IMG/VR virus record: IMGVR_UViG_3300029998_000021
Length of the DNA: 64,000 bases
DNA from: a virus
Taxonomy: Duplodnaviria; Heunggongvirae; Uroviricota; Caudoviricetes
Direction: 5' to 3' (one strand)
Numbering within the stretch: the stretch's first letter is position 1; the number at the start of each line of letters is the position of its first letter. Of this stretch, positions 3,765-47,503 are shown in pieces. The position numbers and the translations under genes are program-made. The notes below the pieces were generated by a model. The model searched no databases. It saw only the letters and a list, made by a program, of their open reading frames with translations, and had not been told where the DNA came from.

Positions 3765-5018
3765 GTGAAAGTAATTAAATATACATATAAATTTAGATTA
3801 AAACCAACAAATGACCAGAAAATTCTTTTAAATAAGCATTTTGGTTCTGTTAGATGGACTTATAATTATTTTTTAAACCAACGAAAAGAAGAATACCTTA
3901 ATAATAAAAAATCAATAACCTACAATAAACAATCAGAATATCTAACACAATTAAAGAAAAATGAAGAAACCGAATGGCTAAAAGAAATAAACAGTCAAAC
4001 ATTACAATACTCTCTTAAATGTTTAGATACTGCTTATTCAGGGTTTTTTGCTGGAAGATCAAAACTTCCAAAATTTAAATCAAGGAAAAATAGAAATTCA
4101 TTTACTGTACCGCAATTCGTGTCTGTAAATAAAAATAAATTATTTATACCAAAATTTAGAGAAATGGGTATAGAAATAATAATGAATAGAAAAATTAAAG
4201 GAACAATTAAACATTGTTCTATATCAAAAACTTCTACTGGAAAATATTTTGTATCAATTTTAACAGAGCAAGAACATCAACCAACAACAAAATCAAATCA
4301 ATCAGCAGGAATAGATTTAGGAATAAAAGACTTTTTAGTATTATCTAATGGAACGAAAATCAAGAACCATAGATTTTTAAAACACTACGAAAGGACGTTA
4401 GCACTAAATCAAAAACATCTATCAAAGAAGACTAAAGGATCAAATCGTTATGAAAAACAAAGATTAAAAGTTGCTAAAATTCATGAAAAAATAACAAACT
4501 CAAGAATGGATTTAATTCATAAAACAACTAATAATCTAATTCGTAATTTTGATGTTATTTATCTGGAAGATTTAAATATTAAAGGAATGAGCAAAAGATG
4601 TAAGTCAAAACAAGATAAAAATGGTAAATATTTACCCAATAATCAATCAGCAAAATCAGGATTGAATAAATCCATTTTAGATGTTAGTTGGGGTAAATTT
4701 ATTGAGGTTCTAGAATATAAAGCCTCTTGGAATGATAAGCAAGTCATTCATATAAATAGATTTTTTCCATCTTCTAAGGCTTGTTCTAAGTGTGGTTGTA
4801 TTAATAATAATCTAGCACTTAAAGATAGAACTTGGATTTGTCCTAAATGTGGTTCAGTTCATGATAGAGATGTGAATGCAGCAATAAATATCCTTAACGA
4901 AGGATATCGTAAAAATATATCAGATGGAACGTCTGATTACGAGCGTGGAGCAAAAATAAGACCAATTTCGGTTGGCACAAGCAATGAAACGTTTAAAGAG
5001 AAGGAACTTGTTTCCTGA
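3765..5018 (+). CDS. tnpB: TnpB (IS605 OrfB-type RNA-guided nuclease), GTG start
   Basis: RuvC motifs AGIDLGIKDF, IYLEDLNIKGM, RDVNAAINI; Zn finger CSKCGC...CPKCG; N-term KFRLKPTNDQ. Confidence 0.9.
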   Translation: MKVIKYTYKFRLKPTNDQKILLNKHFGSVRWTYNYFLNQRKEEYLNNKKSITYNKQSEYLTQLKKNEETEWLKEINSQTLQYSLKCLDTAYSGFFAGRSKLPKFKSRKNRNSFTVPQFVSVNKNKLFIPKFREMGIEIIMNRKIKGTIKHCSISKTSTGKYFVSILTEQEHQPTTKSNQSAGIDLGIKDFLVLSNGTKIKNHRFLKHYERTLALNQKHLSKKTKGSNRYEKQRLKVAKIHEKITNSRMDLIHKTTNNLIRNFDVIYLEDLNIKGMSKRCKSKQDKNGKYLPNNQSAKSGLNKSILDVSWGKFIEVLEYKASWNDKQVIHINRFFPSSKACSKCGCINNNLALKDRTWICPKCGSVHDRDVNAAINILNEGYRKNISDGTSDYERGAKIRPISVGTSNETFKEKELVS

Positions 5019-20050: not shown

Positions 20051-20057
20051 AATAGCG

Positions 20058-20424
20058 TGGAACCGGCGGGATTCAAACCCGCGTCCAAAATAGTCTTTCG
20101 GCATCTTCTACAAGTTTAGTTTCATTTTTCTAAATAAAACAAAAATAAATAATTTTTATTTAGGTAATTATTAAATCCTATAACATTTTTATATCAGTAT
20201 AAAATAGTTTACTAAAAAAACTAGTCTGGTTTTCTTGTTTAGGCTACAGAAACTTCATTCTCAACGACAGATCCAACAACTGAAATTGTTGATTTAGAAG
20301 AAACTACGTGCGTATGTACATTGCCATTTATTGTTTGTATCCATTAATTTATTAATCGCTTATTAGATTATGCGATACTTGCTGATAACCTCATTTCACA
20401 ATCCTGTCAAATTCAGTCGATCCC
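20058..20424 (-). ncRNA. ssrA: tmRNA (ssrA), about 367 nt, CCA not encoded
   Basis: 5' GGGAUCGACUGAAUUUGACAGGAUUGUGAAAUGAGG parallels E. coli GGGGCUGAUUCUGGAUUCGACGGGAUUUGCGAAACCC; 3' GGACGCGGGUUUGAAUCCCGCCGGUUCCA versus E. coli GGACGCGGGUUCAACUCCCGCCAGCUCCA; 7-bp acceptor pairing GGGAUCG/CGGUUCC. Confidence 0.75.
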
Positions 20425-20557: not shown

Positions 20558-21805
20558 TTATTTATGAAGTTTTACTATTTTAAAAGCTTTTTCTAAAATA
20601 GTAATTTCGTCAAAAAGATTATACTTTTTAACAACTCTTGATAAATCAAGAGGCTCGTTCATAGAAGCAATGTGATTTCCAAACCATCTGTTCAATATGT
20701 TTATAGCTGAATTTAAATCACGATCTATAATTATGGTGTCTGATAACTGAACTTTCCGATCTTCCAATTTGATCTTATTATCAAATAATTTTCCAGTTAA
20801 ACAGTTAATTTGTGTTGTCCATTTTTCATCAATTTTTTCTAAGTTTATATTTTTTGCTTGACACTTATAACCAAGAAATTGTAAAAACATTGTAATGTTT
20901 GATTTATGAAATGATTTACGAATTCCTTTTTTATTTTCATTTACTCCTTCTGTAGACATCAATCGTTTAACCGTCAGGTCACCAATTACAATTGTGTTGT
21001 AATTCATATTCACTAATTTTTTGCTTTGAATATGTAAAGCTTGTTTTACTTGTTCGTTCTTCTTATGATAACATTTATTCAATACGTTATTTAACAATAG
21101 ATTCCTATTTGATCCTTTGATAGTTTTACTTCTTTTTTTTTGTATTTTAGCAATTTGTTTTTGATAATAATCATTAATTTTTTTAGATTTATTTTTTAAT
21201 ACTATCATTTCACCATTATTATCAACACCCGTTGCCAATTTTGTTAAGCCTAAATCAATTGCAAGAATTCTGGTTTTAATATTTAAATCATTCTTATATT
21301 CTATTTTATCATCAATAACTAAATCACATAACCATTTATTCCTAATAAATTTAATTCTTATTTCCTTAATATTTAATGATTTTATATCTATTTTTGATTT
21401 ATATTCAAATGGAATTTGATTTATAAAAAATCTATTTTTCTTTATCATCCAACCAGATTGATTAAAAGATATAGTATGAAAATTATTATCCTCTATTTTT
21501 CTTGGCGGTCTAGCATTTTTATCTTTTTTGATTAAATTAAAGAATGATCTATAAGAACCATATAATTCTGTTGCTATAGTTTGTATTGCCTTTGAATTTA
21601 ATTTTTTCCAATCTGTACATTCTTCCTTTAACTGAGGAAGTAAATTATGTAAATCAAAATTATTAAATATAGTTTTGGTTGTATTGTATTTTTCTGTTTG
21701 AATATCAATCAATTTATTCCATATATCTTTACGAATATCAGACAATTTTTGTAATTCAAAAATTTGGTCTTTTTCTGGAAATAATCTTATTTGATATGTT
21801 TTCAT
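20558..21805 (-). CDS. tnpB: TnpB-like nuclease with degenerate zinc finger
   Basis: N-term QIRLFPEKDQ, RuvC motifs AIDLGLTK, VIGDLTVKRL, DRDLNSAINI; CxxC pairs absent (INCLTGK only). Confidence 0.7.
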   Translation of the reverse strand: MKTYQIRLFPEKDQIFELQKLSDIRKDIWNKLIDIQTEKYNTTKTIFNNFDLHNLLPQLKEECTDWKKLNSKAIQTIATELYGSYRSFFNLIKKDKNARPPRKIEDNNFHTISFNQSGWMIKKNRFFINQIPFEYKSKIDIKSLNIKEIRIKFIRNKWLCDLVIDDKIEYKNDLNIKTRILAIDLGLTKLATGVDNNGEMIVLKNKSKKINDYYQKQIAKIQKKRSKTIKGSNRNLLLNNVLNKCYHKKNEQVKQALHIQSKKLVNMNYNTIVIGDLTVKRLMSTEGVNENKKGIRKSFHKSNITMFLQFLGYKCQAKNINLEKIDEKWTTQINCLTGKLFDNKIKLEDRKVQLSDTIIIDRDLNSAINILNRWFGNHIASMNEPLDLSRVVKKYNLFDEITILEKAFKIVKLHK

Positions 21806-37741: not shown

Positions 37742-39127
37742 TTACGCGGTAATTGATTTATACCTTTCACTATTTATAGTTTTCAACATCAAACTAGCTG
37801 GAGTATCAATACTTCCTGATAATACAGATTTTAATATTGCTGGACTGAAACCTGAAACTAATCCTACATTCTTTGCTTTAAAGTTTGCAGGCACATTACC
37901 AAGTCTACCATTAACATTCCAGAAAACAATATCTGGCATTTTATAACCAGCAGTTGAATACATTCTCTGAATCATACTCAATGCAGTATCAGAATTATTC
38001 TGAACGCAACCATTAAATTCCATATCTGATATTATCAAAATTTTAGTTGGCATTTCACTTTCTGGAATATTGTTTTGAGTTGCTTTATTCAAAATCAACT
38101 TATATACAGATTCTAGATTAGTGCTCATACCCCATTCAGCACGTTCCAACTGTTTTAATCTTTCATACAATGATCCTTTCAAATACTGCATTTGTGGATT
38201 ACTTGAAAATGTAATAAAAGCGTCTTTAAAAATACTTTTATTCCTTTCAGAAATATACACACCCAATGCAACTGACACAGACATTGGAAGTCCTGACATA
38301 CTTCCTGATACATCGCAAACTGGAATGACTCTCTCATTCGAATCTGCCATAAAATCAGGAAGATTAATCCATTGTGCTTCAACTGCTCTCTTATCTTCAT
38401 TTCTCTTCCAAGCGTCATATAACATATGTGGAAACAAAACACCAGCTTTAATTTCTTCCTTACCTTCGTGAACCAATTCAATAAACTCATTAAAACGATT
38501 CATATCATTCTTTAAGAATGCTTTTCTATACTTATTCATAGCAACTGAAGGCACATGAGAGTAAGTAATTTCTTCCCAATCCTTTGCGCACATTTTTTGC
38601 TCTACCGTGTTTGATAACCCAACAACAAGTTGTCTGTATTCCTTTGGGGTCAATCCCATATACTTTCTAACCTTATTAGCAAAACCATCTTGTCTTGGAA
38701 GCCATTTTGCAAGCAAACCATTTTCTTTATCCAAACCTTCTTTAATCAAAGGAAGAACAAGTTTTTCATCTAACTCAAAAATATCATCCCAACGACCATA
38801 TTCTGGTACATATTTGATATTTTTTTCAAGATATGATAAATAATTTTTATTCAAAAATTTTGAGCAAACTCTAAAGAATCTTCTTTCTCCAGCTCCACCT
38901 CTTGGATCACGAGCCCAAAACATAAGTTTTAATGCCACTGTTGGATCTTCCACAATTGCTTTTTGAAAAAGCAATTCAATATCATTATCTGACATTTTCC
39001 TTGAAGCACCAGCTAAAAAGAACATATCAACATTTGAATTCAAACTAGTTGAATTTGTTACCATACCATTTGCTGTTGAAGCATCTTCTTGTCTTACAGC
39101 ATTTACCAATTTTGATTTAGATTCCAT
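37742..39127 (-). CDS. rsr: Ro60/Rsr orthologue (TROVE plus vWA domains); true start probably ATG 39127 (ORF track used TTG 39169)
   Basis: WARDPRGGAGERRFF, VLFPHMLYDAW (Ro HPFHIL-like), MIDAS VCDVSGSMSG, ILIISDMEFNG, GLVSGFSPAIL all parallel Ro60. Confidence 0.7.
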   Translation of the reverse strand: MESKSKLVNAVRQEDASTANGMVTNSTSLNSNVDMFFLAGASRKMSDNDIELLFQKAIVEDPTVALKLMFWARDPRGGAGERRFFRVCSKFLNKNYLSYLEKNIKYVPEYGRWDDIFELDEKLVLPLIKEGLDKENGLLAKWLPRQDGFANKVRKYMGLTPKEYRQLVVGLSNTVEQKMCAKDWEEITYSHVPSVAMNKYRKAFLKNDMNRFNEFIELVHEGKEEIKAGVLFPHMLYDAWKRNEDKRAVEAQWINLPDFMADSNERVIPVCDVSGSMSGLPMSVSVALGVYISERNKSIFKDAFITFSSNPQMQYLKGSLYERLKQLERAEWGMSTNLESVYKLILNKATQNNIPESEMPTKILIISDMEFNGCVQNNSDTALSMIQRMYSTAGYKMPDIVFWNVNGRLGNVPANFKAKNVGLVSGFSPAILKSVLSGSIDTPASLMLKTINSERYKSITA

Positions 39128-39159
39128 AATTATTTGTTTTGTTTTTGTTATTAAAAATA

Positions 39160-39193
39160 AAAATCCCAACTAAAATTCATTAGTTGGGATTTT
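39160..39193 (-). terminator. 13-bp hairpin AAAATCCCAACTA/TAGTTGGGATTTT followed by a U-run on the minus strand
   Basis: Would terminate a minus-strand transcript immediately upstream of rsr. Confidence 0.5.
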
Positions 39194-39195
39194 AA

Positions 39196-39420
39196 AAATG
39201 ACCTGATAGCAGTTCTTACGGTATTATCCATATTGGTATGCACACAAGTACGTTAAATTAAAATCTCAACAGAATACAAGAGTTTTTCTCAAAAACTCAG
39301 GGAAAACTTTCTTTTCAAAATTTTTTTATTTTGTCTTGTCTTTAATATGATGTGTCGGCCAAGTGAAAACTTTAGAAAAGTTTTAAAACACTCTTCACAT
39401 CATGACTTTCTGTTTATAAT
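39196..39420 (-). ncRNA. candidate ncRNA upstream of rsr (Y-RNA-like?); boundaries speculative
   Basis: No ORF; extended imperfect stem-loop 39338-39397 on minus (AUGAUGUG...CACAUCAU closing, inner 8-bp AAAACUUU/AAAGUUUU, asymmetric loop UGGCCGA); ends at terminator 39160-39193. Confidence 0.25.
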
Positions 39421-39485
39421 TGTTTAGTTTATAATTGCAGAATGTATTCTTTATGAGTATTGTTTATAAAAATTAACAGAATACG

Positions 39486-39535
39486 CTTTTTTTCTTATCC
39501 ATAGAAGTTTTTTTATCGCTGTATGTATTCTTCAA
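39486..39535 (+). repeat. about 50-nt repeat TTTTTTTCTTATCCATAGAAGTTTTTTTATCGCTGTATGTATTCTT (second copy 45744-45797)
   Basis: Near-identical segment in the tRNA island; submotif GCTGTATGTAWTCTTCAA also at about 45697. Confidence 0.55.
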
Positions 39536-42865: not shown

Positions 42866-43864
42866 ATGATAGAAAATGATTTTTTATTATTTATATATAG
42901 AATAAAAAACATTATGAAAAAAATAACAACTGATCAAGCAAAAGAAAGAATATTATTAAATAATTCTAATATTATATTCCTAAGTGATTTTTTAGGCACA
43001 TATAATAAAAGTAAATTTAAATGCTTAATTTGTAACCATGAATGGACAACTACCGCAAAATATGTAATAAATGGTGATAGTGGCTGTCCTGAGTGTGGAA
43101 AGAAAAAAGCAAAAGAAACCATTAAATATAATCTAACTACTGAAGATTTTAAAAAAAAAGTGTATAAAAAATACGGAGATAATATAAATATCATTGGAAA
43201 ATATATTAATGCTATAACTAGAATAGAATCTCAATGTAACATTTGTGATCATATATGGAAACCATATGCAAAAAACTTAATAGCAGGAACAGCAGGTTGC
43301 TATAAATGTAGATGTAAAAATACAGGTGTAAAAATAAGAAAATCACCTGAAAAATTTTTAAATGAAATAAATAAAATACACAATGATAGAATATCTATAT
43401 TAGGAGAATATAAAACCTGTAATAGTAAAATGAATGTTAAATGTAATGTTTGCGGTAATTTATGGACAAGTAATACTGCAAGAGAATTATTAAGAAGAGG
43501 TTGCCCAAAATGCAATTTATCAAAAGGTGAATTATTAATATCAGATATATTAAAAAAATTAAAAATAAATTATAATGATCAACATATTATTAATGGATTA
43601 AAAACTGAAGATAATGGTACACCATCTTTTGATTTTGTGTTATATGATGAGTACAATAATGTAAAAACTATTATAGAATATGATGGTCTTCAGCATTTTA
43701 AAGCAGTAAAAAGATGGGGAGGTATTAAAAGGCTTGAAAGACAACAAAAAATAGACAAATTTAAAAATAATTATTGTGGCGAAAACAATATAAAAATGAT
43801 CAGAGTGCCATATACAGATTTAAAAAAAATAAATATTGAATACATTAAAAATTTATTAAAATAA
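42866..43864 (+). CDS. homing-endonuclease-like protein: three Zn-ribbon repeats plus C-terminal Vsr/DUF559-like PD-(D/E)XK domain
   Basis: Repeats FKCLICNHEWTTTAKYVINGDSGCPECG / CNICDHIWKPYAKNLIAGTAGCYKC / CNVCGNLWTSNTARELLRRGCPKC; C-term FDFVLYDEYNNVKTIIEYDGLQHF; paralog of 53542..54450. Confidence 0.6.
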   Translation: MIENDFLLFIYRIKNIMKKITTDQAKERILLNNSNIIFLSDFLGTYNKSKFKCLICNHEWTTTAKYVINGDSGCPECGKKKAKETIKYNLTTEDFKKKVYKKYGDNINIIGKYINAITRIESQCNICDHIWKPYAKNLIAGTAGCYKCRCKNTGVKIRKSPEKFLNEINKIHNDRISILGEYKTCNSKMNVKCNVCGNLWTSNTARELLRRGCPKCNLSKGELLISDILKKLKINYNDQHIINGLKTEDNGTPSFDFVLYDEYNNVKTIIEYDGLQHFKAVKRWGGIKRLERQQKIDKFKNNYCGENNIKMIRVPYTDLKKINIEYIKNLLK

Positions 43865-43880
43865 AAAATAATATCTAAGA

Positions 43881-44010
43881 TTTAGAAAAGGGCACCAGAT
43901 GGGATTCGAACCCACATTTTTCATTCCGTTATGCACATAGAGTTTAGGAAACTCCGCCATTACAGGTGCGTGGTGCACGGCGGGCGGCTCGCCAGCCGTG
44001 CGTTCCCTAT
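43881..44010 (-). ncRNA. non-canonical tRNA-like RNA 'B' (T-arm plus acceptor stem, no D-arm) with GC-rich 5' hairpin
   Basis: 3' GUGGGUUCGAAUCCCAUCUGGUGC; acceptor GCACCUG/CUGGUGC (one U-U); internal GGAGU-UUCCUAA-ACUCU arm; GC hairpin GCACGGC...GCCGUGC in a 25%-GC genome. Confidence 0.35.
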
Positions 44011-45552: not shown

Positions 45553-45626
45553 CTTAATACTGAGCGAATAATGGGACTTGAACCCACAACTTCCACCTTG
45601 GCAAGGTGGCACTCTAACCAATTGAG
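45553..45626 (-). tRNA. tRNA-Gly(GCC)
   Basis: Anticodon arm CCACC-UUGCCAA-GGUGG; T-loop UUCAAGU. Confidence 0.75.
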
Positions 45627-45743
45627 CTACATTCGCATTATTAAATCACAGATTACATTTTTTAGAATTTACAATTTACAAGTTTGTTTCTTTTTTGAAT
45701 TGCTGTATGTAATCTTCAAGATTTATTTTTTAAGAACAGAATA

Positions 45744-45797
45744 CTATTTTTTTTCTTTTCCATAGAAGTTTTTTTAATTTGCTGTTAGTATTCTTTA
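45744..45797 (+). repeat. second copy of the 50-nt repeat (see 39486)
   Basis: TTTTTTTCTTTTCCATAGAAGTTTTTTTAATTTGCTGTTAGTATTCTT. Confidence 0.55.
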
Positions 45798-45805
45798 TCA
45801 GAGCA

Positions 45806-45885
45806 ACACGGTGGGATTCGAACCCACGACATCATCTATACCACAGATGCATTCTACCTACTGAATTACAATTGCATTTCGATTT
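45806..45885 (-). ncRNA. tRNA-like 3' fragment (T-arm GUGGGUUCGAAUCCCAC) without a clean acceptor pairing; possible pseudo-tRNA
   Basis: T-arm clear, acceptor 3' CGUGUUG has no matching 5' strand. Confidence 0.25.
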
Positions 45886-45899
45886 TTCTTTCTCAACTA

Positions 45900-45999
45900 T
45901 AAAAGTTTCAAGGAAATATAAAATCGTAAAACCCTACATCGTGGATCGTGTGAGATTTCGACTCCTCTTAAACATTGCAAGTGTTTCGTGCTAAGCAGG
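45900..45999 (-). repeat. structured element X (shares AACACUUGCAAUGUU...GAGG...UCGAAAU...CCACG..GGGUU with element Y at 46940-47045)
   Basis: About 70% identical copies flanking the HNH gene 46000..46902. Confidence 0.35.
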
Positions 46000-46902
46000 T
46001 TACACTACACAACCCATATAAATTTCTTTTAATTCTTCCAAATCTATATATGTTTTAATATCTTTTTCATAATATTTTCCATATTTATCTTCAAATATTT
46101 CTATTTTTTCTAACAATTCTTCAATTGTCAATGAACAATCATCAGATTTACTTTGATTTTTCTTATTCACAATCAATTCACAATTTGCTGGATGTGCAAG
46201 TAATAATGGATTTATTAATTTTCGAAATCCTCCTTTTACTGACAACATATGATCTCGACTCACACCATCAACATTATCACCATTATTTTTAGCCTTATAC
46301 CAGCCAAATTTTTCAATCAATGTAAAATCAAATTCAGTATTAAAATCTTTCAAATTGAATTTAAATTTTGATAACACATAATATAACTCAAACTCTGTTT
46401 TATTTTTAGAATGATATTCGTTTTTACATTTTATATTACAAAAAATTCTATTTCTATATCTAAATTCTAATACCGAATCACAATTAAAACATAATTTAGA
46501 ATTTTCATAATATAATTCCTTTTCTTTAACGTATTTAATTTTTTCCGAATTTAATAAATTTTTATAAGCAGATTCTATTAAACTTTTTCTTCCATCTTCA
46601 CTTAAATTATGCTTTATACCCTTTCTTAATTTGTTATTAAATTTTGCTGAACAAGAATGATCACAAAAGTCCGAATTTAACAATCTTTTTTCAAAGGATA
46701 TTATTTCACCACAAAATTTACAGATATTAGGATTTTTCAAATATTCTTTTTCAGCCAAAACACTTTTATTTTTAAAAATTTCTTTAACCTTACTATAATC
46801 TCTTAAATTTTTATTAACATATATATTTCTACATTTCAGAGAACAATACACTCTTTTATCATCTATTAAATTTTCACACTCATCGTTTTTACACTTTTTC
46901 AT
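46000..46902 (-). CDS. HNH endonuclease with multiple N-terminal CxxC zinc fingers
   Basis: CKNDEC...CSLKC, CKFCG, CFNCD; C-term GVSRDHMLSVKGGF...NCELIVNKKN (HNH: H, N, N). Confidence 0.55.
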   Translation of the reverse strand: MKKCKNDECENLIDDKRVYCSLKCRNIYVNKNLRDYSKVKEIFKNKSVLAEKEYLKNPNICKFCGEIISFEKRLLNSDFCDHSCSAKFNNKLRKGIKHNLSEDGRKSLIESAYKNLLNSEKIKYVKEKELYYENSKLCFNCDSVLEFRYRNRIFCNIKCKNEYHSKNKTEFELYYVLSKFKFNLKDFNTEFDFTLIEKFGWYKAKNNGDNVDGVSRDHMLSVKGGFRKLINPLLLAHPANCELIVNKKNQSKSDDCSLTIEELLEKIEIFEDKYGKYYEKDIKTYIDLEELKEIYMGCVV

Positions 46903-47045: not shown

Positions 47046-47111
47046 GTGAAGATTCACATCTTCACTTTATTCTAAATCTTAAATATGTCAAATAACTCTT
47101 TATTGTGATCC

Positions 47112-47260
47112 AGAAGGGATTCGAACCCTCATTTTCATTTCCGTTATGCACATCTCGCTTAGAAGGCGTAGCCATTACAGGACCAATATAATGTGTGTCT
47201 ATCCACACCTGTCGCAGTCGATTAACTAAAACTTTTCACAGTTTCGATACACATATTCAA
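47112..47260 (-). ncRNA. non-canonical tRNA-like RNA 'A' (paralog of B) with 5' hairpin GUGUG-GAUAGA-CACAC
   Basis: Acceptor GGUCCUG/CUGGAUC pairs with the same U-U as B but compensatory changes at two other positions; conserved CUGUAAUGGC...AUGUGCAUAACGGAAAUGAAAAUG...GGGUUCGAAUCCC. Confidence 0.35.
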
Positions 47261-47379: not shown

Positions 47380-47465
47380 TATCGGTACTATGAAATTCTA
47401 ACAGTCTCCTACTCGTCGGGTATGTACGATTTGAACGTCTCCCCAAAATCCCAAATTTTGGATGC
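47380..47465 (-). ncRNA. degenerate tRNA-like element (acceptor CGGGUAU/AUACCCG, weak T-arm)
   Basis: Acceptor pairing perfect but T-stem only 3 bp. Confidence 0.2.
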
Positions 47466-47503
47466 AACCAAGTTACACCTCATACCCGTTTTTTTTATTA
47501 AAC

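Follow-up and report, generated by a model that had tools for sequence, protein, structure and literature searches.

Does a bacteriophage gene that resembles a Ro60 gene come with RNAs of its own, as Ro60 comes with Y RNAs, and, if it does, which RNAs are they? The question is raised by a stretch of 64,000 nucleotides of viral DNA (Caudoviricetes; IMG/VR record IMGVR_UViG_3300029998_000021), here called the window, which encodes a Ro60-like protein on its minus strand (Table 1). An earlier note, made from the sequence alone, saw in this gene and in a terminator-bounded non-coding RNA locus directly upstream of it a candidate Ro-Y RNA module. That proposal is right in outline and remains the best reading of the locus, but the specific RNA features that it put forward do not hold. 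In their place stands a widespread family of RNAs, tightly linked to the clade of proteins that carry the Pfam domain DUF2828, and bridging to the YrlA RNAs of bacteria. It is probable, in our judgment, that the window encodes a divergent protein of the Ro60 clade and that these RNAs are its Y-RNA equivalents, which it would bind. The protein is, of course, of a kind already known; what is new here is the linked RNA family, which goes unmentioned in the annotations and papers that were searched.

A family of RNAs linked to one protein clade

The members of the family share a simple frame. Each begins with (A)AG and is closed by a 7-bp terminal stem; the 5' half of this stem is followed by any three nucleotides (NNN), a single-stranded C(A/U)GCAA, and a variable interior, and the element ends in CU-GU. 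Within the terminal helix, an A-U pair is followed by an invariant G-C pair, and this by five pairs that covary freely. The consensus of 44 elements reads AAAGGATnCnTACAGCAA...GnATCCTGTT. The family was found neither in Rfam 15 nor in the literature searched.

The statistics rest on 99 loci, from viral contigs and metagenomes, that encode relatives of the window protein with 27-88% identity. One test takes every N7-N3-CAGCAA and seeks the exact reverse complement of the N7 between 25 and 100 nt downstream. In the DUF2828 loci, this succeeds for 62 of 236 occurrences on the gene strand, versus 1 of 134 on the opposite strand. The corresponding count in 1.06 Mb of unrelated viral loci is 9 of 905. 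Internal controls on the gene strand gave 5/236 when the complement was sought upstream, and 1/236 when the plain reverse was sought in its stead.

For a covariance model, R1, 44 short elements were used, and the 7-bp helix was the only structure imposed. Searched against 590 kb of DUF2828 loci, R1 makes 99 matches at E < 0.1, every one of which (99/99) lies on the gene strand. Sixty-two of these stand upstream of the gene, 34 downstream, and none inside it; most are within 600 nt, with up to five in tandem. The negative control consisted of 871 kb of viral loci on contigs that had been fetched with the 15-mer TTGTATTCTGTTGRG, a probe of viral contigs that was given up, its matches being mostly due to chance. 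Here, R1 matches below E 0.09 occur on three contigs only, all of which carry DUF2828. One or more gene-strand elements are present in 42 of the 57 non-redundant loci whose flanks each extend for 1 kb or more; a regular expression for the long form of the element, described below, finds 27 loci on the gene strand and none on the other.

The stem itself bears the marks of selection for pairing. In the 99 R1 matches, 99% of the cells of the terminal helix hold standard pairs, versus 30-45% when the partner columns are slid, a count that is favoured by seed selection and model fitting; the N7 motif test is free of this bias. Both sides have changed in 210 cells, six of the seven pairs covary, and none of 500 shuffles did as well. 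The second pair of the stem is G-C in 96 of 96 sequences.

Inverted repeats in many copies need not, of course, act as RNA. They might instead work at the level of DNA, for example as hairpin promoters, as sites for recombination or homing, or as miniature inverted-repeat mobile elements. Terminal inverted repeats and multiple, duplicated copies (two of those in the window, E1 and E3, are nearly identical) would be expected of these, and the window has genes for homing endonucleases and IS200/IS605-type transposases. However, the sequence of the repeat differs in almost every copy while its complementarity is kept, G-U pairs included, which argues for selection on RNA pairing and not for the binding site of a transposase. 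Further, the orientation is always that of the neighbouring gene, and the asymmetric motif stands on one side only. We therefore hold a DNA-level account to be highly improbable.

The protein: sequence and structure

[quoted passage not shown] The mechanically called start, a TTG at 39169, would overlap the terminator described below; the ATG at 39127 was taken as the start because homologues of 461 amino acids align with it over 100% of the query. All five of the motifs that the earlier note had quoted from this reading frame are found, in columns that are invariant or nearly so in 43 homologues. The MIDAS motif (DxSxS...T...D) is complete, with D272, S274, S276, T336, and D368 invariant in the same set.

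Pfam recognizes the N-terminal alpha-helical (HEAT-like) ring region as DUF2828 (PF11443, 112.9 bits, cut-off 29, 2.2e-32) and the C-terminal vWA domain as DUF7788 (PF25043, 168.7 bits, cut-off 27.1, 1.4e-49). The other matches at E <= 1 are weak ones to VWA_CoxE and HTH_AraC, and scans with NCBIfam and PADLOC add nothing beyond DUF2828 and DUF7788. Among phage protein families, phrog_850 ("RNA-binding protein") matches residues 8-457 with 458 bits. Thus, the protein is a full-length member of the DUF2828/DUF7788 group (PHROG 850; the "Ro-like RNA binding protein" of actinobacteriophages), from which it differs in nothing.

Structure comparison leads to Ro60. An AlphaFold2 model of the window protein (pLDDT 91.8, pTM 0.90) was compared by Foldseek with the PDB, where the best seven matches are all Ro60/TROVE structures, aligned over the full length. 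The modelled chain is an alpha-helical HEAT-like ring followed by a vWA domain, and can be superposed on solved Ro60. Eukaryotic proteins with DUF2828 and DUF7788, from oomycetes, chytrids, and the amoeba Vannella, are named "TROVE domain-containing protein" in UniRef. Judged from the model, the window protein very probably works like Ro60 and descends from it, in a clade that lies beyond the reach of the TROVE sequence model.

In a close relative (L003 / L014, 1742-3993; loci are numbered with the prefix L), the gene is split into a 144-aa N-terminal part and a 327-aa C-terminal part by an intervening open reading frame (ORF) of 291 aa with two LAGLIDADG homing-endonuclease motifs. The database holds many C-terminal-only proteins of 324-334 aa (P0055, P0056, P0060, and others), which suggests that the split form is common.

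The elements of the window

The window holds the shared frame four times, each time on the minus strand, as AGAWUAC, 3 nt, C(A/U)GC(A/G)A, interior, and GUAWUCU-G(U). Two copies, E1 and E2, lie 140-400 nt upstream of the Ro60-like gene on its own strand; E3 and E4 lie in an island of at least 13 tRNAs. The stem halves covary even between these copies, being GAAUAC/GUAUUC in some and GAUUAC/GUAAUC in E4 (AGAUUAC/GUAAUCU). E1, with an interior of about 30 nt, has orthologues in L002, L003, L004, and L085. The interior of E2 is about 150 nt, with the closing stem, flanks, and motif position of E1 and E3; R1, a short-form model, does not detect it. E2 is kept in seven relatives, with some compensatory changes in a central hairpin, GUGAUG/CAUCAC.

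The surroundings of E1 and E2 are much as the earlier note had described them. The region is free of ORFs, with none of at least 40 aa on the minus strand between 39170 and 40127. The strong hairpin that had been read as a 13-bp terminator has 14 pairs and, being stable and followed by a U-run on the transcribed strand, has at sequence level the form of an intrinsic terminator. It is kept in L001, L003, L004, L085, and L143 and is present, though displaced, in L002; a terminator scan of the upstream region finds four terminator-like sites, versus 0.8 expected. The long stem-loop claimed at 39338-39397 appears at about 39404-39345 (minus strand) in the minimum-free-energy fold, where it forms part of E2. 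The upstream 296 nt fold better than shuffled sequence (z = -3.3; 1 of 200 shuffles equally good), and viral contigs whose protein is 78-88% identical keep this region in blocks. Thus, the non-coding RNA locus beside the gene stands, conserved, structured, on the same strand, and ended by a terminator, while its proposed features and extent were wrong; the conserved signature continues past the flagged region to E1.

Which features fail? The UGGCCGA loop, held to resemble a Ro-binding site, differs in each of the six relatives compared, where the site reads GTCGAAC, AAGTTAC, TGGTTGG, TTGTTTG, or AGGCGGC. The Rfam models for Y_RNA (RF00019) and YrlA (RF02553) find nothing upstream of the gene at E <= 10. 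Two tRNA-like loci of the island, A (43891-43977) and B (47106-47184), both on the minus strand, had been offered as YrlA-type partners. They lack the stem+CAGCAA frame, and give only tRNA-type matches below threshold, of 20.3 bits as tRNA-Sec (A) and of 24.9 bits as tRNA (B, threshold 29); the copies of the family in the island are E3 and E4.

Two further candidates were discarded. The sole YrlA match in the window, obtained at permissive Rfam thresholds (24.3 bits, threshold 69), spans two adjacent ordinary tRNAs and is spurious. The sequence GTATTCTGTT was weighed as a promoter or a repeat motif of the phage, but the window shows no enrichment of it (10 versus 6.4 expected); it is the 3' half of the RNA element's stem.

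Some relatives carry a still smaller version of the element, of 33 nt, which consists of the 7-bp stem, UAACAGCAA, and a short A-rich loop, and which sits in the 5' untranslated region (UTR) between the terminator and the ribosome-binding site. L145 has a weaker R1 match of about 43 nt in the same place; the window locus is without a minimal version. That these minimal versions keep nothing else suggests that the stem and CAGCAA together are the unit that is recognized. They are candidate autoregulatory operators, through which the protein may regulate its own translation.

This brings up a simpler view of the upstream region. Perhaps E1, E2, and the terminator are only a cis-acting 5' leader, an attenuator or a protein-binding operator that controls the Ro60-like gene and does nothing more. 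A leader would look much like this, since the region is conserved and structured, its terminator leaves no room for a separate promoter before the start codon, and the minimal hairpins of the relatives lie beside the ribosome-binding site. Yet a leader does not account for the 34 elements downstream of the gene, nor for five copies in tandem, nor for E3 and E4, which lie between tRNA genes 6 kb from the gene, nor for the elements that come after the gene in the phages Wilder and HK3. From these downstream, tandem, and tRNA-island copies it follows that leader function cannot be the whole story, although it may coexist with a function in trans. As a complete explanation, we find it quite unlikely.

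Linkage to the gene rather than to tRNA islands

The intervals between tRNA genes hold many of the elements, spaced as tRNA genes would be. E3 takes up such a "tRNA slot," with about 10 nt between it and the preceding tRNA (45805-45875), and E4 adjoins the tRNA-Gly(GCC) at 45562-45636, 12 nt before it. One might suppose, therefore, that the elements serve phage tRNA arrays as modules for processing or spacing (for example, as acceptor-stem-like minihelices that guide cleavage by RNase P, E, or Z) or are degenerate remnants of tRNAs, and that they are near DUF2828 genes only because both reside in tRNA islands. In support of this, copies in L006 (1050-1112, 1285-1346, 1871-1937), like E3 and E4, are placed 7-12 nt from tRNAs, the 7-bp stem is like an acceptor stem, and some interiors have 7-nt loops like those of anticodons.

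Cultured phages separate the two neighbours. The complete genome of mycobacteriophage Wilder (75.8 kb) has only two R1 matches, 39 and 234 nt after its Ro-like gene (40.5-42.0 kb), while its cluster of about 14 tRNA genes (62.8-66.4 kb, about 20 kb away) has no match at all. In the 50 kb searched of Listeria phage LMTA-148, R1 has significant matches only in the unannotated gap immediately upstream of the gene, where three copies stand in tandem. These two genomes tie the elements to the gene and not to a shared preference for tRNA islands. Elements flank the gene also in the Felix-O1-like E. coli phage HK3, in Synechococcus phage BUCT-ZZ01, and in the 735-kb phage LR756501, and lie after it in HK3, as in Wilder; Cronobacter phage S13 has a weak match. 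Moreover, the elements abut the gene, not tRNAs, in the window, in Listeria phages, and in the clade of E2; outside the three DUF2828 contigs, the 871 kb of other viral DNA has none; and a conserved single-stranded CAGCAA is not a tRNA feature. A tRNA-module origin is, on these grounds, an improbable one.

A different RNA lies in the tRNA array beside the DUF2828 gene of L158 (1415-1476). It is the "freshwater-1" motif RF02979 (74.3 bits, above threshold), which is distinct from the stem+C(A/U)GCAA family.

Size classes and the relation to Y RNAs

Within one frame, the family comes in three size classes: short elements of about 48-70 nt, mid-sized ones of about 105-135 nt, and long ones with interiors of about 150-270 nt. 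The long forms, to which E2 belongs, have larger folds in their interiors and often have CUGCAA. Short interiors are A-rich, and their commonest hairpin has a 5-bp stem and a 7-nt loop (for example, window 39505-39490 and 45766-45751, and L006 1050-1112). Of 21 such loops, for which CUGUUAA, CUUGAAA, CUUUUAC, and CUUCUAA are examples, 18 have U at position 2 and 18 have A at position 6, which is the pattern of an anticodon loop. This could be mimicry of the tRNA anticodon arm, or an effect of A/U-rich composition.

The mid-sized class provides the bridge to YrlA. A 108-nt member in L006 matches the YrlA model with 37.7 bits (E 8e-7 locally, threshold 69), and the matching part consists of a T-arm, then a stem-loop, then a D-arm, the permuted arrangement that characterizes YrlA. 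Six other members, those of HK3, Wilder, and S13 among them, have the same T-arm/D-arm module. E1-E4 have no tRNA-like domain of this kind (T arm before D arm), in contrast to these seven mid-sized members elsewhere.

In Wilder, a gene annotated as tRNA-Asn (SEA_WILDER_56) lies inside a 122-nt element (L225 4521-4642, equal to KX580962 42058-42179). TGGACTC/GAGTCCA form its closing stem, and it contains CAGCAA as well as a T-arm with a D-arm after it. What is made here may be a Y-like RNA and not a functional tRNA.

How far does the likeness to Y RNAs extend? A Y RNA is marked by a helix of its 5' and 3' ends, and by a place within a few kb of a Ro60 gene, on the same strand. The family has the 7-bp terminal helix, and 96 of 99 R1 matches are in the flanks of the gene. 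As in the known systems (bacterial YrlA/YrlB, Deinococcus Yrn1, phiLo Yrl1/Yrl2), the RNA genes adjoin the protein gene on its strand, and there are often several RNAs per locus, in short and long versions. Both kinds of RNA have a conserved motif near the 5' strand of the closing helix, the T-arm/D-arm module is common to YrlA and the mid-sized members, and RtcB/RNA ligase and tRNA genes are nearby, as in Ro60 operons. The differences are that C(A/U)GCAA follows a 7-bp stem, where Y RNAs have GGUCCGA/GNCGAA(N)G in a bulged helix, that the window elements score nothing with the Y_RNA and YrlA models, and that, at about 55 nt, the short forms fall below the size of every described Y RNA.

Several observations weigh against taking the protein and its RNAs as a Ro60-Y RNA system. 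TROVE (PF05731) is not among the Pfam matches of the window protein at E <= 1, and no Ro60 was found among PDB sequences, whether by phmmer with the single protein or by hmmsearch with a profile of 43 sequences. In this, the protein differs from Ro60/Rsr; the earlier note had expected the TROVE match and had named its absence from profile searches as grounds for rejection, and that absence is formally what Pfam and HMMER against the PDB return. The TROVE+vWA identity that it proposed stands as an architecture and not as a Pfam match, and the Ro60 assignment is kept because of the structure comparison. On the RNA side, the canonical Ro-binding motifs GGUCCGA and GNCGAA(N)G are absent from the family, so that the likeness to Y RNA recognition is one of analogy and not a homology of binding sites. 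Of the 57 well-flanked loci, 15 have no element under the models used, and KVP40 has none within 3 kb of its gene. In E2, covariation of the interior is modest and the closing stem is invariant within its own clade; RNAalifold on an alignment of eight E2 sequences recovers the interior only in part, with the 3' hairpin misaligned. The bias of the pairing count belongs here as well. Finally, while the protein's fold, the RNA family with its covariation, and its strand-specific linkage to the gene are shown, expression, RNA ends, processing, physical binding, and biological role are what we infer.

A mechanism that would connect these elements

Under the reading preferred here, a Ro60-like protein with its own Y-RNA equivalents, transcription would start upstream of 39531 and run through E1 and E2, and most transcripts would end at the terminator (39193-39160). 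The protein gene would be expressed by read-through, leaving RNA in excess over protein. Such dependence on read-through is probable because the ATG comes just 28 nt after the terminator, and nothing like a promoter was found in between. E3 and E4 would be made together with the tRNA array. The protein would then bind the terminal helix and the CAGCAA motif, while each RNA would owe a partner or target of its own to its variable interior. Ro60 itself takes Y RNA on the surface of its ring, and the ends of misfolded RNAs in the cavity.

The role may be the surveillance or repair of RNA during infection, perhaps by protecting or clearing tRNAs that host nucleases have damaged. The analogy with Ro60/Y RNA/PNPase and the rsr-yrlBA-rtcBA operon, together with the company of tRNA, tmRNA, and RtcB/RNA-ligase genes, makes such a role likely. 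In many loci, tRNA arrays and tmRNA genes adjoin the gene (tmRNA genes are next to it in L147, L148, and L190), RtcB and RNA ligase genes are nearby in Listeria phages, and Wilder has genes for polynucleotide kinase and RNA ligase. This neighbourhood suggests a part in the arms race between phage and host over nuclease damage to RNA.

We know of no function or ligand for the DUF2828/PHROG 850 proteins, although they occur in hundreds of well-studied phages. An orphan family would here gain a candidate ligand that can be tested, an RNA of 33-60 nt with a defined stem and CAGCAA. The Ro60-Y RNA principle would extend to a second protein clade, unrecognizable by sequence, with a different RNA code. 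The family would also explain unannotated gaps, and some dubious "tRNA" calls, in the tRNA regions of phages.

Resemblance to the Class I RNAs of Dictyostelium

In Dictyostelium, Class I RNAs are abundant and developmentally regulated, and act by a mechanism that is not known, to which the phage elements offer an unexpected lead. Class I RNAs have a short terminal stem with compensatory changes, a motif beside the 5' half of the stem, and the termini AAG...CUGU, and are reported to be unique to dictyostelids (PMC7919456). The phage elements have the same arrangement of 5'/3' stem, adjacent motif, and termini. Indeed, the Rfam family of Class I RNAs (RF01414, Dicty_Class_I_RNA) is the only one that responds to the short elements, with ten full-length matches of 23.5-32.5 bits in 20 loci and the window, none of which reaches the gathering threshold of 41.5 (the best are 32.5, 32.5, and 32.0 bits). 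All ten fall on R1 elements of the gene strand, and the rest of the 137 kb scanned at permissive thresholds has no match. In the window, E3 has a full-length match of 32 bits, the sole one at E <= 0.3; E4 scores 27 bits and E1 23.5 bits.

The resemblance extends to details. Class I RNAs are 42-65 nt in size, compared with about 48-70 nt for the short phage elements; in both, the terminal stem varies by compensatory change with an invariant G-C pair near its 5' start, and a single-stranded motif containing UACAGCAA follows directly 3' of the 5' stem half (consensus CCUUACAGCAA in Class I RNAs, nUACAGCAA in the phage family). Both have an A/U-rich variable remainder, AAG...CUGU ends, and many gene copies, and a full-length alignment to the RF01414 consensus shares UACAGCAA and the CUG end. 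The differences are a stem of 6 bp in place of 7 bp, nuclear dictyostelid genes with a DUSE promoter where the phage loci are without DUSE, and a protein with an RNA-recognition motif, Rnp1A, as the only named direct binder of Class I RNAs.

All of this may reflect convergence, or chance in A/T-rich sequence. Searches with DUF2828 proteins reached oomycetes, chytrids, other fungi, and the amoeba Vannella, but not Dictyostelium. No element lies within 10 kb of the eukaryotic DUF2828 genes of Saprolegnia (an oomycete) and Obelidium (a chytrid). That the short phage RNAs and the Class I RNAs are of one kind, a terminal helix with a UACAGCAA platform bound by a Ro60-like (DUF2828/TROVE-type) protein, is a speculation that we consider rather unlikely. 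Were it true, Class I RNAs would be a Y-RNA-like class with relatives in bacteriophages, and their missing partner would be a ring-shaped Ro-like protein. Ro-type ribonucleoproteins would then form at least two co-evolving lineages, one of TROVE proteins with GNCGAA-type Y RNAs, and the other of DUF2828 proteins with CAGCAA-type RNAs.

The protein and its RNAs in other phages

A Ro-like gene by itself is not unusual in a phage; the earlier note had thought that a Ro60-Y RNA system appears unusual in a T4-like one. Searches by tblastn place the protein in 709 catalogued phage genomes, among them Felix-O1-like coliphages, Listeria phages like P100 and A511, phages of Staphylococcus, Campylobacter, and Enterococcus, KVP40-like vibriophages, mycobacteriophages, and huge phages; metagenomes hold thousands of further homologues. 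Some records annotate it as "RNA-binding protein," "Ro-like RNA binding protein," or "putative Ro sixty-related protein." The window protein is 36-53% identical to those of catalogued phages, with its closest relative (53%) in a 735-kb metagenomic phage. Phage Ro60/Y RNA pairs were, moreover, published in 2014 and 2025 (PMC4201824, PMC12135203). YrlA-type RNAs adjoin a TROVE-annotated Ro60 in 22 phages (PMC4201824), and the Ro60 of phage phiLo associates with host PNPase and binds two Y-like RNAs (Yrl1/Yrl2), whose genes lie upstream of its own (PMC12135203). A partnership with Y RNA has been suggested for the homologue in Listeria phage CKA15 (PMC12282133). The gene of the window is thus an ordinary phage gene of an already annotated kind.

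The CKA15 homologue, CKA15_055, was found in purified virions by mass spectrometry, with 20 peptides and 57% coverage (PMC12282133). With a homologue detected in virions, the Ro60-like protein may be packaged and delivered with the genome, and so may act early after injection.

Three tiny ORFs upstream of the CKA15 homologue, CKA15_059-061, are reported to exceed all other phage transcripts widely in abundance, with up to 67% of the total from the phage (PMC12282133). They were considered as elements of the family, and were ruled out because the region matches ROOL RNA; in CKA15, the family elements lie closer to the gene. The match was made in LMTA-148 (L223 1966-2517, RF03087, 90 bits, E 9e-17, just under the threshold of 99.1), and the equivalent region of CKA15 is at about L230 1860-2420. 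The three transcripts are probably one ROOL RNA.

Coordinates and other features

Table 1. Positions of the gene, its motifs, the RNA elements, and associated features (window coordinates unless a locus is named).
Feature	Position	Strand	Remarks
Ro60-like protein gene	37742..39127	-	ATG at 39127, stop at 37742-37744; 461 aa
Motif WARDPRGGAGERRFF	residues 71-85		
Motif LFPHMLYDAW	residues 231-240		
Motif DVSGSMSG	residues 272-279		
Motif ISDMEFNG	residues 366-373		
Motif GFSPAIL	residues 426-432		
Terminator hairpin (putative, intrinsic)	39193-39160	-	14 pairs, 6-nt loop, then TATTTTT; 28 nt before ATG
Spacer or 3' tail between E2 and terminator	39194..39269	-	variable, poorly kept in relatives
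E2, long form, about 180 nt	39270..39450	-	AGAAUAC, AUU, CUGCAA, interior hairpins, GUAUUCU, GUU
UGGCCGA site	39361-39355	-	inside E2
E1, short form, about 55 nt	39477..39531	-	AGAAUAC, AUA, CAGCGA, A-rich interior with small hairpin, GUAUUCU, GUU; R1 53.3 bits, E 4e-13
E4, short form	45649..45715	-	R1 38.8 bits, E 2e-8
E3, short form, near-duplicate of E1	45737..45794	-	R1 56.3 bits, E 4e-14
Minimal version, L001	2938-2970		
Minimal version, L002	2946-2978		
Minimal version, L004	2939-2972		
Minimal version, L143	2440-2472		
Minimal version, L144	191-223		
Minimal version, L156	2435-2468		
Minimal version, L227	3915-3952		

The description of the phage as T4-like is unsupported; the window shows only a giant tail sheath of the myovirus type. 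This is an ORF of 1233 aa (60078-63779, minus strand), the C-terminal third of which matches tail-sheath families. It is unusually long for a sheath, as would fit a large myovirus better than a typical T4-like phage.

The tRNA island includes a tRNA match at 47417-47487 (31.7 bits) that ARAGORN missed. Genes for HNH-type homing endonucleases lie beside or inside the island, at 42866-43864 (plus strand) and 46000-46902 (minus strand), and the latter overlaps a low-scoring tRNA match at 45943-46014. Elsewhere in the window, a phage tmRNA is found at 20055-20424 (minus strand; Rfam 63.5 bits), for which ARAGORN gives the tag peptide GNVHTHVVSSKSTISVVGSVVENEVSVA. An IS200/IS605-type (PHROG 506) transposase-like ORF at 20558-21805 adjoins this tmRNA, and a second is found at 3765-5018.

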